From: a candidate division WOR-3 bacterium
GTDB lineage: Bacteria > Hydrothermota > 32-111
Reading direction: 5' to 3'
Assembly: GCA_039804205.1 (NCBI GenBank)
Contig: JBDRZY010000001.1
Location: 354,595 to 418,594 of the forward strand
DNA: 64,000 nt
The notes below the pieces were generated by a model, which saw nothing but the letters and a program-made list of their open reading frames with translations, was not told the DNA's origin and did not search any database. Positions 23,786 through 29,407 of this stretch are shown piece by piece. How positions within the stretch are numbered: the stretch's first letter is position 1; each line of letters opens with the position of its first letter. The translations under genes were made by a program, and so were the position numbers.

Positions 23786-23968
23786 ATGAAAGTGAAAGTT
23801 GATCAGGAAAAATGTATAGGTTGTGGTGTTTGTATCAATACCTGTCCAGATGTTTTTGAACTCAACGATGATTCAAAAGCACAGGTTAAAGATGATGCTG
23901 ATTTTGACTCCTGCGATCTTGATGAGGCAATAGATAATTGTCCAACAGAGGCGATTGTTGAGGAATAA
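23786..23968 (+). CDS. Monocluster [4Fe-4S] ferredoxin (60 aa)
   Basis: CIGCGVC..CP...C...CP pattern; SD AAGGAG; true start downstream of the ORF-track start. Confidence 0.93.
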   Translation: MKVKVDQEKCIGCGVCINTCPDVFELNDDSKAQVKDDADFDSCDLDEAIDNCPTEAIVEE

Positions 23969-24587
23969 AGTAAAGCCGGTTTTAACCGGCTTTTTTTTTC
24001 TTTTACACTCCATCTTTCTAAAAGCAGACGGTTCCTACATCGATTCAATAATCAGCAAAAATAATTTTTACAATTACGAGTTTTTTTTCATCAAAAGTTT
24101 AAAACTGTTTTCTGGAGAACTGATTGGAAACATAAACGGGAAAATAGTTTTAACTGAAGATTCAACAAAACTCTATCTTGTTGATAAAAATAAATCTTTT
24201 GTGATAGGTTATAACAGAAAAGGTGTTTTTGAGGAAAGGGATGGGAAAAAAATATATCAAAAAAATATTTCACTTCTTAAAGATCTTGAAATAACAACAA
24301 CCCTGAACCCGATGTCAAAACTTAAAAACACAAAATATACATTAAAGGAAAACTGTTTTGATTTTTTCCCTGTAAACGGTAAAGTAGATAAGGTTAAAAT
24401 TTTCTTCACTAAAAATTTTTTATACGATTCAATATTTTTCATAAAGGGAATTGATACGGTTATGTCTACATTTTACAGATATGATGATAAATTTTTTCCT
24501 GTGGAGATAACAACTTATGACAGATTGAAAGGGATTGTGGAAAATATAAAAAATTATAGAATAAAAACTATTGATTTTTTTAAATAA
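23955..24587 (+). CDS. Hypothetical secreted protein, possibly LolA-like fold (start TTG 23955 or 23958)
   Basis: Signal-peptide-like N-terminus ending FLKA|D; beta-strand-rich; fills the gap to the next promoter. Confidence 0.55.
   Translation: MLRNKVKPVLTGFFFLLHSIFLKADGSYIDSIISKNNFYNYEFFFIKSLKLFSGELIGNINGKIVLTEDSTKLYLVDKNKSFVIGYNRKGVFEERDGKKIYQKNISLLKDLEITTTLNPMSKLKNTKYTLKENCFDFFPVNGKVDKVKIFFTKNFLYDSIFFIKGIDTVMSTFYRYDDKFFPVEITTYDRLKGIVENIKNYRIKTIDFFK
23972..23999 (+). terminator. Intrinsic terminator after ferredoxin, lying inside the next ORF
   Basis: GCCGGT-loop-ACCGGC followed by T9. Confidence 0.85.
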
Positions 24588-24598: not shown

Positions 24599-24619
24599 TA
24601 TATTCAAAAGGAGGTCTTG

Positions 24620-24794
24620 ATGAAACTCAATCTTTTTATCGTTTTGGTTTTAATACTTGTTTCAATTTTTGTATTTGCTTCATTCACATTCACATTCAAT
24701 GTTTCCCAGTGTTGTTGTTATACATACAGCAATGGTAGCAGTGTGAAAACGGTTTCTGTTTCACCATATTCAACAGGGATGAATTTTATTCTGA

Positions 24795-24802
<8 letters not shown>
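24620..24802 (+). CDS. Small secreted beta-rich protein with CCC motif (60 aa, about 40 aa mature)
   Basis: Strong SD 5 nt before ATG, Sec signal ending VFA|S, stop overlaps next start (ATGAGTAA). Confidence 0.7.
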
Positions 24803-25607
<805 letters not shown>

Positions 25608-25613
25608 TTTATA

Positions 25614-25641
25614 TTGACATATAGATTAAAAATGATAAAAT
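25614..25641 (+). promoter_or_regulatory. Strong sigma70 promoter of the lipoprotein-LysM operon
   Basis: TTGACA-16-TAAAAT with TG extension; SD AAAGGAGGT. Confidence 0.75.
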
Positions 25642-25661
25642 GTTATCAAAGGAGGTTTTAA

Positions 25662-25907
25662 ATGAAGAAAATTTTAATCATTTTGGTTCTATCACTTCTT
25701 CTCCTTTCTTTATTTATAACTGGATGTGGTCCAAAGAAAGCCACTCAGGCACAACTTTCTCAACTTGAAGAGTTGAAGATGGCAGCGGATCAGGCAGAAG
25801 CACAGTATGCTGATTGTCAGAAAAAGGTTGAAGAGTTGAAAAAAGAGAAAGAAACTCTTCTGAAAGAGATCGAAGAGTTGAAGAAAGAGATTAAAATCTA
25901 TAAATAA
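25662..25907 (+). CDS. Small coiled-coil lipoprotein (Lpp-like architecture)
   Basis: Lipobox ITG|C22; mature 60 aa is almost all heptad repeats; ends in Lys (KIYK). Confidence 0.85.
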   Translation: MKKILIILVLSLLLLSLFITGCGPKKATQAQLSQLEELKMAADQAEAQYADCQKKVEELKKEKETLLKEIEELKKEIKIYK

Positions 25908-25919
25908 GAGAGGTGAAAG

Positions 25920-26336
25920 ATGAAAAGTAAACTTTTTATTGTCGTTTTATTGTTGATCCTCTCAACAGTTATCTTTGCTCAGACAATGACTGAAAAGGAA
26001 GTTCTCGATGCTATAGCAAAAGAACAGGCACGCCTTGATGCAGCGAACGCAAAGATTGAAGAGTGCAAAAATACTCATTCTCCACTTATGACTGAAGTTG
26101 AAAATTTAAGAAAAGAAAAAGAACAACTTATAGCAGAACTGAACAATCTGAAAGAAACAAGAGGATTCTATATTGTAAAACCTGGTGACTGGCTTTCAAA
26201 ACTTGCTGAATACAAAGAGGTCTATGGAAAAGGTGGATGGAAAAGATGGCCTGAAATCTACAGAGCAAACAAAAGGTTGATAAAGGATCCAAATCTTATA
26301 TATCCAAACTGGAAGTTAACAATTCCAAGACCATAA
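25920..26336 (+). CDS. Secreted coiled-coil protein with C-terminal LysM domain
   Basis: Signal ending IFA|Q, coiled coil, [13 protein letters not shown]...WPEIYRAN...PNLIYP..KLTIP. Confidence 0.92.
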
Positions 26337-26347
26337 GTTAAATTTTA

Positions 26348-26372
26348 GATGGGCTGTTTTAAACAGCCCATC
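26348..26372 (+). terminator. Stem-loop after the LysM gene (terminator or stabiliser; no U-tract)
   Basis: GATGGGCTGTTT-T-AAACAGCCCATC perfect inverted repeat. Confidence 0.7.
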
Positions 26373-26379
26373 AAATGTT

Positions 26380-27300
26380 ATGTTTCAGTTAGAAGAAAAG
26401 ATTAAGTTATTTTTCAACAGATACCCTAATTACAGAGATTTAATAGATTCAAATCTGAAGGGTAGTATCACTTTTACAGATGGAAATTATTTTTTTGAGG
26501 GGAGTGAAGATAATTTTTTGAAGTTGAAAAATATAGTTTCAAAACTGATAGAAATTGAGAATGACAAAGGGTACCTTGAAAGAACTGATGTTGTAAGTTC
26601 TATTTCAAAAAGTATAAATGATCTTTCTCTTGGAAAAGATCAGAATATTTATTATTTACCAAAGAAGATAATAAAAGCGAGAACGAAAGGACAGGAAAAA
26701 TATATTGAATCTTTAAACAGATACGATATAGTTGTTGCGATTGGACCGGCAGGCACGGGAAAAACCTTTCTTGCGGTAGCGAAAGCGCTGAATGAACTTT
26801 TGAAAAAAAATGTTTCAAAAATAATTCTAACAAGACCTGCTGTTGAAGCTGGTGAGAACCTTGGATTTTTGCCTGGTGATTTGAAGGAAAAAATCGATCC
26901 ATATCTAAGGCCTCTTTATGATGCTTTGTATGATCTTGCCGATAAAGATCGAATTGATAGGATGATAAGGGATGGGATAGTTGAGATCGCTCCACTTGCA
27001 TACATGAGGGGAAGAACACTTTCAAATTCTTATCTTCTTCTTGATGAAGCACAGAATACGACATCGATGCAGATGAAAATGTTTTTAACGAGACTGGGAG
27101 TGAGATCGAAAGCGATAATAACAGGTGATATAACACAGATAGATCTATCGATAAGATCGTCATCAGGTCTTGTCGAGTTACAGGATATCGTTAAGGATAT
27201 TAAAGAGATTTCGTTTGTTCATCTAACCTCTGAAGATGTTGTGAGACACCCTCTTGTCAAGGATATAATCGATGCATATTCTTCATACAATAAAAAGTAA
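26380..27300 (+). CDS. phoH: PhoH-family ATPase
   Basis: [38 protein letters not shown]. Confidence 0.95.
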
Positions 27301-29407
27301 TTTGAAAAAATTTTATTTTGATATAATACTTATCCTTATACTTGTTATTTTTTTCAATATTTTTTATCCATCAACCTTTTCAAAGATTCCCCAGTTAAAA
27401 AAGGGAGATATTTCACCCAAGGATATAGTTGCTCCTTTCACTTTTGACATCATTAAAAATAAAGATATTCTTATAAAAGAAAAGGAGAGAGCGTACGATA
27501 ACACTCCACCTGTTCTTGTTTACGACGAAAATCGAAACCTTGAAATAATAAACAATTTTAATTCTTTAAAAAATTTTGTTGATTCACTAAATAAAAATGT
27601 ATGGAAAAACGATTTAAAAAGAAAAGTTCTAAAAGATAGCATAAAGAATCTTTCTGATGATCTTATAAACATACTTATCTCTGACCAGTCAAAAAATGTT
27701 TTAAATTTCGTTGAAAATTCTTTAAAACAGATACTCGAAATTGGTGTTATAGGTGATAAAAGTGTAATTCCCTTTGGAAAAGACAGAAAAATTTCCTTGA
27801 AAAGATCAAACAGGGAAACAGTGAAATATGAAAATGAAATCTTCGATCTTGCCCAGGCAAACGAATATTTGAAAAAAGAGATAATAAAAAAATATTCTGG
27901 TAACTCATACCTTTTAAAATATGGTCTGGAGATGTTCCAGTATCTTTTAAAACCTAACATATTTTTTGATAGAGATGAAACCTCGTTCAGGAGAGAAAAA
28001 GCAAAAAATGAAGTTTCTGAAAAAGTTGGAATAGTTTTAAAAGGTGAAGTGATTGTGAAAGCCAACCAGGTTGTGGATCAGACAGTTGAGGATAAAATTT
28101 ATTCACTCAACAGATTTCTAAAAGGTGAGGAGAATTTAAAACAGAAAATTCTAAACACTCTATATAAAAATTTAATACTTGTAATCTCTTTCATACTCTA
28201 TCTTGTTTTCATAAACACACAGTTCTCAAAGTTATCATTGAGAAAGAGGGATAAACTTTTCGTGTCATGCCTTTATCTTATCAACCTTGGAGTTTATGGT
28301 TTTTTCTATGAATTCCCAAACATTGAGTACATAGTTCCACTCATTTTGACATCAATTCTTCTTTCACTTCTTTACAGTAAAACTTTTTCTTTGATAACAC
28401 TCCTGTTCATTCTAACATCTTTGATCCTCTATTCAGGTATGAGGTTGTATGGATTACTTGCTGTTTTGATCTCATCGATATATTCTATATTCTTTATAAA
28501 GGATGAAAATTTGAAGAAGAACTTTTTTGGTATAGTTTTTAAAATTTCGGTTATAAACCTTTCATTGGCGTTTTTCATAGAACTCTATCGGGAATCATCT
28601 ATGTCAAACATTTTTATTTCGATGGTCTACAGTTTTATTAATCCTGTTCTTTCTTTTGTTTTGATGATGTTTACGATAAAATATATTGAAAATCTGCTAC
28701 AGAGGTTGACGAATGTTACCCTTTTTGAACTTTCGGATCTGAACAATGAACTTTTAAAAGAACTTTCAGAAAAAACATCGGGGACATACAACCATAGCAT
28801 AATAGTTAGCCGTCTTGCTGAAAAGATCGCACAGGAGATAGATGCTGATCTTTTGCTTGTTCGTGTTGGTTCTTACTACCACGATATTGGAAAGATGCTA
28901 AAACCTGAATATTTTATTGAGAACCAGTTTAAAGGTGTAAATCCTCACGAGAATCTTCCGTATGAAATTTCAGCCGAGATAATAATCGAACATGTTCAGA
29001 ACGGTTTAAAACTTGCCCAGAAATACAAACTACCGGAAAAAATAAGTAGATTTATTATAACACATCATGGCACCACAACGGTTGGGTATTTTTATGAGAA
29101 AGCGAAAGAATCGAAAAAAAACTTTAATCCAGAACAGTTCAGATATCCAGGACCTTTACCTTCAAGTAAAGAGGAGACGATAGTTATGCTTTCCGATTCG
29201 ATCGAAGCTGCTGTTAGAAGTATCAACATCACCGATGATGAAAGTTTAAAGGAAATTATTGAAAAGATTATAAATAACAGGATCGTCGAGAATCAATTCA
29301 TAGAATCTGAGATCACTCTTAAAGACATCGAAAAGATCAAAGAGGTTTCGTTTGAATTTTTTAAAGGTATCTACCATCCGAGGATAGATTATGTTGCAAA
29401 AAAATAA
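27272..29407 (+). CDS. 7TM-HD phosphohydrolase (PgpH-like cyclic-di-AMP phosphodiesterase)
   Basis: Extracytoplasmic domain, 7 TMs, [37 protein letters not shown]. Confidence 0.9.

Follow-up and report, generated by a model that had tools for sequence, protein, structure and literature searches.

A two-gene unit for two small exported coiled-coil proteins

The window analysed here, a stretch of 64,000 nucleotides (nt) from a candidate division WOR-3 bacterium (assembly GCA_039804205.1, contig JBDRZY010000001.1, positions 354,595 to 418,594), carries at positions 25614-26372 two small adjoining genes that encode a coiled-coil lipoprotein (gene 1) and an exported coiled-coil protein with a C-terminal LysM domain (gene 2). 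All features described for this locus lie on the plus strand. Genes 1 and 2 are closely spaced and make up one two-gene unit, headed by a near-consensus promoter. Specifically, a sigma-70-type promoter (TTGACA-16 nt-TAAAAT, 25614-25641) with its -35 element at 25614-25619, its -10 element at 25636-25641, 11 of 12 matches and an extended -10 TG ranks first among 12 promoter-like sites within 25000-27000, against a mean of 6.9 for shuffles. A Shine-Dalgarno sequence, AGGAGG (25650-25655), precedes the ATG of gene 1 at 25662 by 6 nt, and a second one, GAGAGGTGA (25908-25916), lies within the 12-nt intergenic gap ahead of the ATG of gene 2 at 25920. Beyond gene 2 there is a hairpin with an 11-bp stem and a 3-nt loop (26348-26372; -18.5 kcal/mol, z -4.8), and none of 200 shuffles was equally stable. 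An earlier sequence-only reading of this DNA had listed the promoter, the Shine-Dalgarno sequences, both genes and the hairpin, and each was found in place; we correct it in one respect, as the hairpin is without a T-run and a terminator scan returned 0 sites.

Gene 1 (25662-25907) encodes, as that reading had it and as translation and heptad analysis confirmed, an 81-amino-acid (aa) lipoprotein with a signal peptide (residues 1-21), a lipobox in which FITG precedes Cys22 (25725-25727), and a 60-aa coiled-coil mature part that ends in KIYK. Unbroken heptads span residues 35-80 and place Cys52 (25815-25817) at a 'd' position. Cys22 and Lys25 are invariant in all 34 rows of the alignment, and within the own family of the pair the mature part measures 59 aa in 14 of 14 pairs. 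The 87 public relatives found at E <= 1e-5 are named either 'hypothetical' or after automatic coil-based assignments, none of which is informative.

Gene 2 (25920-26336) encodes 138 aa and was likewise confirmed as a Sec-exported coiled coil with a terminal LysM domain: a signal peptide ending in VIFA before QT (residues 1-21, 25920-25982) is followed by the coil (residues 22-81, 25983-26162), with Cys49 at 26064-26066, and by a LysM domain of the Kbp/YgaU type (residues 83-138, 26166-26333). By profile evidence gene 2 is a member of the LysM family, since Pfam LysM (PF01476) scores 27.3 bits at a cut-off of 20.9 and the alignment profile matches the LysM domain of Escherichia coli Kbp/YgaU (PDB 7pvc) at E 1.1e-12 and 9g8s at E 2.2e-9; as such it would be expected to bind peptidoglycan. 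The model PRK11198 scores 47.5 bits, under its cut-off of 134. At least 2126 protein clusters among 8000 candidates scored are related to gene 2 at E <= 1e-10, some of them maybe via LysM alone, and public names for such relatives are 'hypothetical' or generic LysM protein. The OmpA-like domain PF00691 matched neither gene 1 nor gene 2. Further matches of the two proteins (DUF3450, phage scaffold, SMC, PcsB and EnvC/CwlO-type proteins) were driven by the coils and all lay below cut-off; they were rejected as matches of composition.

Conservation and pairing of the two coils

The pair is kept far beyond the source genome. Gene 2 had a match (E <= 0.01) in 39 of 41 related genomes and the gene 1 profile likewise in 39, and comparing the coordinates of both searches revealed a separate gene 1 directly adjoining gene 2 in 33 of the 41, a count that excludes genomes G028 and G035, where the gene 1 profile match falls inside the gene 2 open reading frame (ORF). 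In all of the 20 loci fetched first, the gene that directly precedes the coil-LysM gene has a lipobox. Scanning one genome per species gave 232 relatives, of which 80 were kept and loci L021-L076 examined; L077-L100 were set aside, their listed matches being confined to the LysM region of the query (residues 75-138 or less). Among loci L001-L076, 72 were assessable and yielded 60 unique pairs, with the lipoprotein gene upstream in all. A second sample, collected after the pairing idea had arisen, consisted of 79 metagenome loci (257 relatives in the scan) and added 46 new unique pairs. Two loci were left out as other proteins (L050, L075) and thirteen since they meet a contig end, as L029 and L052 do, or have gene 1 beyond the fetched DNA (L029, L052, L133, L134, L135, L140, L181, L184, L185, L186, L188, L191, L192), and the lipobox or LysM domain was assigned by eye in L045-L058, L049, L059, L060, L064, L074, L136, L149 and L190. 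Wherever both genes were readable, in the 60 genome pairs as well as in the 46 metagenome pairs, a separate gene 1 was present. Synteny of the pair, which the sequence-only reading had suggested checking across FCB/WOR-3 genomes, holds in 33 of 41 genomes and 106 unique pairs.

Record titles of the loci with the pair name TA06, WOR-3-type, Stahlbacteria, Cloacimonadota, Coatesbacteria, Mcinerneyibacteriota, Eisenbacteria, Krumholzibacteriota, Latescibacterota and Hydrothermales, and the closest titled relative of gene 2 among public records, at 91% identity, comes from a metagenome-assembled genome labelled candidate division TA06. In loci labelled Krumholzibacteriota or Eisenbacteria gene 2 has two LysM domains and often a lipobox of its own, and gene 1 is kept, ending in GSGR. 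A division of labour in which gene 1 supplies the anchor and gene 2 the grip, as proposed from the sequence, therefore fits the own clade of the pair and does not extend unchanged to these loci; since gene 1 is retained where gene 2 has its own lipobox, gene 1 is more than a mere anchor. Five related genomes (G019, G024, G030, G033, G036) show a second LysM match right after the first in a frame of ~200 aa, which suggests two-LysM forms there too, and G019 has an additional locus with two coil-LysM matches in tandem.

Profile comparison indicates that gene 1 and gene 2 are paralogous coils. Aligning the two families with hhalign (34-row alignments) gave a probability of 98.6% and an E-value of 9.6e-16 over 87 columns, values that are inflated by common signal peptides and coil composition. 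The alignment runs ungapped through the coil and sets Cys52 of gene 1 onto Cys49 of gene 2. Both coils consist of unbroken heptads with the Cys at 'd' in each, and in the ungapped register their starts and ends coincide. Paralogous coils sharing a Cys had been recognised in the sequence-only reading and are upheld here; the insertion of exactly one heptad between them proved unnecessary, because the ungapped profile alignment and the complex model described below still match Cys52 with Cys49, and we dropped it in favour of the ungapped alignment with the same Cys pairing.

The Cys residues of the two proteins vary together. The lipid Cys apart, mature gene 1 had as many Cys as the coil of gene 2 in 59 of the 60 unique pairs examined first (0/0, n=20; 1/1, n=36; 2/2, n=3), L020/L042 being the exception; the metagenome sample had equal numbers in 36 of 46 new pairs, which brings the combined figure to 95 of 106. 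All pairs with Cys in both proteins (58/58) have them in matched position classes. In the 34-row paired alignments the window positions in gene 1/gene 2 were 52/49, 42/38, 80/77 and 73/70, which relative to 52/49 are shifts of -10/-11, +28/+28 and +21/+21. In three of the four position pairs the two Cys lie in the same 'd' layer as each other. The group with two LysM domains has matched Cys sets of its own (6 with 25-33; 6+21 with 33+46). Mapped on a tree for which Cys had been masked, the joint Cys states, six in number, require six changes where the minimum possible is five, which points to about five coordinated changes rather than a single inherited state. Conservation of the Cys had been suggested earlier as a check; what these counts show is that Cys number mostly tracks between the partners and that the positions move jointly.

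Charges at the flanks of the coil core favour pairing between the two proteins. For parallel, in-register coils the g-e' net charge score was +4.56 for the heterodimer versus +1.65 and +1.00 for the homodimers, with 0.71 repulsive g-e' pairs versus 2.47 and 2.18, and for 30 of the 34 pairs, which are interrelated, the heterodimer score was above the mean of the homodimers. When mature gene 1 and mature gene 2 were modelled as a complex, the interface scores (ipSAE) were 0.67, 0.67 and 0.68, whereas the best of three controls, all unrelated proteins, had 0.00. In a benchmark, 58 of 80 solved complexes attained this ipSAE mark, compared with 2 of 110 mismatched pairs; for custom alignments such as ours the calibration is only rough. 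The runs had at least 98% of contacts in common, with a partner pLDDT of at least 89. The modelled coil is parallel, with both N-termini at one end; gene 2 residue n contacts gene 1 residue n+3, and the interface extends over gene 2 residues 23-81 and gene 1 residues 24-81, with the contact of 49 with 52 included. The heterodimer and its register are what the modelling supports. Taken with the Cys co-variation and the g-e' charges, the model makes a parallel hetero-coiled coil of genes 1 and 2, joined via the shared Cys, the most likely arrangement, in line with the hetero-coiled coil that the sequence-only reading had put forward. That reading had also suggested structure prediction of homo- versus hetero-oligomers, of which the 1:1 hetero-complex was the form modelled and was predicted.

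A candidate membrane-to-wall tether and its alternatives

As to function, we lean, with modest confidence, towards a heterodimeric coiled-coil tether or spacer between membrane and cell wall. Genes 1 and 2 would be the two strands of a parallel, in-register heterodimeric coil of ~58 residues, and with a coil rise of 0.148 nm per residue the rod would be roughly 8.5 nm long. Gene 1 would be cut at its lipobox, and the lipidated Cys22 would tie the rod to a membrane by its N-terminal end. Gene 2 would be exported through Sec, its signal peptide being probably cleaved, and would pair with gene 1 in the n to n+3 register. The LysM domain at the far end of the rod would then hold the glycan strands of peptidoglycan non-covalently, and the complex would serve as a membrane-to-wall tether or spacer of fixed length. 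In the own clade of the pair, Cys52 of gene 1 and Cys49 of gene 2 would meet in one 'd' layer, most simply as an interchain disulfide if the Cys pair is oxidised.

The source genome (1.71 Mb, 94.55% complete) encodes proteins of the Omp85/BamA family and the organism is therefore a diderm; the enzymes Lgt and LspA, which mature lipoproteins, are encoded as well. By analogy with Lpp, the anchoring membrane would most likely be the outer membrane, with the lipid in its inner leaflet. The genome has three OmpA-domain proteins, encoded elsewhere than the pair, and no Pal-type lipoprotein was seen in it, as none of the three bears a lipobox.

Several observations weigh against a stapled heterodimeric tether. 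Cys is absent from about one third of the pairs (20 of the first 60), so the family can do without a staple. Cys counts are unequal in 11 of 106 pairs, which cluster as two groups of look-alike pairs: eight (L020/L042, L125, L128, L132, L139, L149, L193, L146/147) have a lone gene 1 Cys at +20, that is 20 residues past the lipid Cys, and none in gene 2, and the other three (L167, L170, L171) end in GFEY. Related pairs are, moreover, not mutually independent. The controls of the complex model were natural proteins that are not coiled coils, and coils dock readily in models; the model covers the 1:1 hetero-complex only, and not homo-oligomers, 2:1 or 3:3 assemblies. The three OmpA-domain proteins could tether the wall by themselves. 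Finally, searches of the 41 related genomes found neither DsbB nor VKOR, and a DsbA-like Thioredoxin_4 domain was not found in the source genome at its 94.55% completeness. Known enzymes that could form the Cys52-Cys49 disulfide were thus missing from these searches, and the bond would have to form without them or under oxidising conditions only. Given that no DsbB or VKOR was found, the Cys pair could also act as a staple that responds to redox state, the envelope being tightened only in the presence of an oxidant.

Different placements and assemblies of the two proteins have to be considered. The same heterodimer might sit in the inner membrane, as a spacer or link to the wall or as a scaffold for wall synthesis or hydrolysis, which we regard as unlikely although it is the alternative to be taken most seriously. 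The Pfam LolA model has no match in the source genome, which would favour this placement, but the same model's control also missed Bacteroides, and a periplasmic protein of the LolA superfamily is encoded directly upstream of the pair, which makes a Lol-type route to the outer membrane plausible. Automatic Joint Genome Institute (JGI) names of relatives (EnvC-like, CwlO-like) hint at regulators of wall hydrolases, a likeness of coils only, and neither gene 1 nor gene 2 shows a hydrolase or LytM domain. In addition, the residue after the lipid Cys of gene 1 is not Asp, although the Asp rule for lipoprotein sorting is known only for E. coli. If, on the other hand, the two proteins did not pair at all and formed separate homo-oligomers (e.g. 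an Lpp-like trimer and a LysM dimer) that are neighbours merely as paralogues, a Cys at 'd' would equally permit homodimer disulfides, and the 11 pairs with unequal Cys numbers as well as the restriction of the modelling to the hetero form would cause no difficulty. Such homo-oligomers would leave unexplained the joint changes in Cys presence and position, of which there are at least five separate ones, and the better g-e' charges across the two proteins, and the complex model favours the pair; we consider them very improbable. Least credible of all appears a divisome heterodimer of the FtsB/FtsL type or a periplasm-crossing complex of the spanin kind. Some relatives of gene 1 nearly reach the cut-off of Pfam DivIC (27.3 bits, cut-off 28.9) and the gene 2 profile matches FtsB chains at E 0.0045-0.0077. 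The source genome has, however, a proper DivIC/FtsB gene (PF04977, 35 bits) at C1:190402-190620, whereas gene 1 of the pair scores 13.9 bits against the cut-off of 28.9 and carries a lipobox; an FtsL model had no match in the source genome, and its control finds E. coli only. Both N-termini lie together in the model, which argues against a complex that spans the periplasm, and both proteins are lipoproteins in some phyla, which fits one membrane and not a crossing between two. A spanin is also at odds with the conserved chromosomal context beside phoH (19 of 20 loci), with no phage lysis cassette.

The sequence-only reading had further likened the terminal Lys of gene 1 to that of Lpp. If gene 1 were a true Lpp analogue, its C-terminal Lys would be joined covalently to peptidoglycan and the LysM protein would act as a second grip. 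The [IK]YK ending of gene 1, which does not vary among the 14 unique pairs of the own family, resembles the YRK ending of Lpp, and YkuD occurs in 7 of the 8 genomes from the family's other (sister) genera (17 of the 41 related genomes overall). In the own genus, however, the YkuD L,D-transpeptidase was found in none of six genomes (85-100% complete), each of which retains the IYK ending, and the last residue of gene 1 varies across the 60 unique pairs (K, n=31; R, n=14; W, n=9; G, n=2; E, n=2; Y, n=1; M, n=1). Gene 1 has a weak match to NF040598, the alanine-zipper model for Lpp/OprI (22.1 bits, E 1.6e-4), that stays below the cut-off of 43, and PF04728 (Lpp) had no match in the source genome while the E. 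coli control was found. In the complex model Tyr80 and Lys81 of gene 1 are among the residues that contact gene 2; by heptad register Tyr80 lies at core 'd', and Lys81 at 'e' faces Glu73 of gene 2 at 'g'. A covalent attachment is therefore improbable in our view, and on the evidence of these genomes the idea of a covalent Lys is not supported and should be dropped for the source genus.

Relation to known tethers

The heterodimeric tether, as preferred here, invites comparison with Lpp, which is likewise a small lipoprotein with a mature part of ~58-60 residues, nearly all coiled coil, with the lipid at the N-terminal end and the wall at the C-terminal end, and for which a fixed-length tether is the likely role in common with the pair. 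Lpp is a homotrimer, whereas the pair is modelled as a heterodimer; furthermore, the wall grip would be the LysM domain of the partner, no YkuD was found in the genus, and the pair falls short of the Lpp models. It would thus work like Lpp yet is no member of the Lpp family. Pal and OmpA share with it a non-covalent grip on peptidoglycan and a hold on the outer membrane, by lipid (Pal) or barrel (OmpA), but use an OmpA-like domain instead of LysM and are single chains without a long coiled-coil stalk. OmpM/SlpA-type proteins of Terrabacteria have a coiled-coil stalk that joins the SLH domain and the beta-barrel. As far as the available parts of the sources describe them, they resemble the pair in joining a wall-binding domain to an outer-membrane anchor, and differ in that a single polypeptide, which forms homo-oligomers, carries both the beta-barrel anchor and the SLH domain. 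The LysM domain of E. coli Kbp/YgaU is the nearest solved one to that of gene 2, but Kbp is a BON-LysM protein described as potassium-binding, with no coil and no lipoprotein partner. Rz/Rz1 spanins and FtsB/FtsL are two-protein periplasmic coiled-coil complexes as well, and spanins include a lipoprotein and intermolecular disulfides; they differ from the pair in genomic context and geometry, and their family models do not recognise it.

Two studies, each available to us in part, bear on these comparisons. One states that Lpp is covalently attached through its C-terminal Lys and that Salmonella LppB forms disulfide-linked dimers and mixed oligomers with its paralogue (10.1101/2025.11.13.688167). 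To judge from the available part, LppB is a precedent for redox-linked pairing of paralogues in a tether; it differs in that its Cys is C-terminal, its partner is another Lys-linked Lpp with no LysM domain, and pairing modulates a covalent tether. The other, a survey of outer-membrane tethering, confines Lpp to a subclade of Gammaproteobacteria and names four systems, Lpp, Pal, OmpA and OmpM, and its main text as available contains neither 'LysM' nor 'WOR-3' (10.1101/2021.05.31.446380). Our own full-text literature search, which did not extend to supplementary tables, found no description of a lipoprotein/LysM coiled-coil pair. The pair is real and undescribed, and is a candidate for a heterodimeric tether between membrane and wall. 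A wider proposal, which we put forward tentatively and regard as doubtful for now, is that it represents a fifth class of outer-membrane-to-peptidoglycan tether, so far unrecognised, in the form of a heterodimeric rod of fixed length with a co-moved, possibly redox-sensitive Cys staple in many lineages. In WOR-3/TA06-type bacteria and in several other candidate phyla of the Fibrobacteres-Chlorobi-Bacteroidetes (FCB) group, this rod would be the principal lipoprotein tether and would act as a periplasmic ruler. If true, uncultured FCB lineages would have a new solution to outer-membrane tethering, and the pair would be a natural heterospecific coiled coil with a co-evolved staple position. For phyla without genetics it would also open up envelope architecture to simple tests. 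Both proteins are small and easily expressed.

Gene neighbourhood

The LolA-like neighbour (24795-25556, plus strand) is a 253-aa exported protein with a signal peptide and no lipobox, and its position upstream of the pair is kept within the own family. It has no match in Pfam or NCBIfam; its predicted structure (AlphaFold2, AF2; pLDDT 84.4) has a LolA-superfamily fold, with LolA/LolB chains on top in a Foldseek search. The best PDB matches were LolA of F. tularensis and LolA3 and LolB of P. gingivalis (E 6e-11 to 3e-10), with TM scores of 0.44-0.62 against LolA/LolB chains. A tRNA-Gly(ccc) gene is located at 25536-25607, just upstream of the gene pair, and the last 7 codons and the stop of the LolA-like ORF (25536-25556) overlap it on the same strand; the tail of this ORF, AGI[TA]QW, recurs in close relatives. 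Upstream of the LolA-like gene, and overlapping its start by 8 nt, lies a 61-aa ORF (24617-24802, plus strand) with a hydrophobic N-terminal segment and a conserved triple-Cys motif, which is kept in most own-family loci and has no family match. It is preceded by an exported ORF of 210 aa (23955-24587, plus strand), whose sole Pfam match is weak and sub-threshold. Downstream of gene 2 follows a PhoH-family ATPase of 306 aa (26380-27300, plus strand; PF02562, E 1e-91), whose gene, phoH, stands downstream of the pair in 19 of the first 20 loci, and the end of phoH is overlapped by a 711-aa ORF (27272-29407, plus strand) with many hydrophobic stretches.

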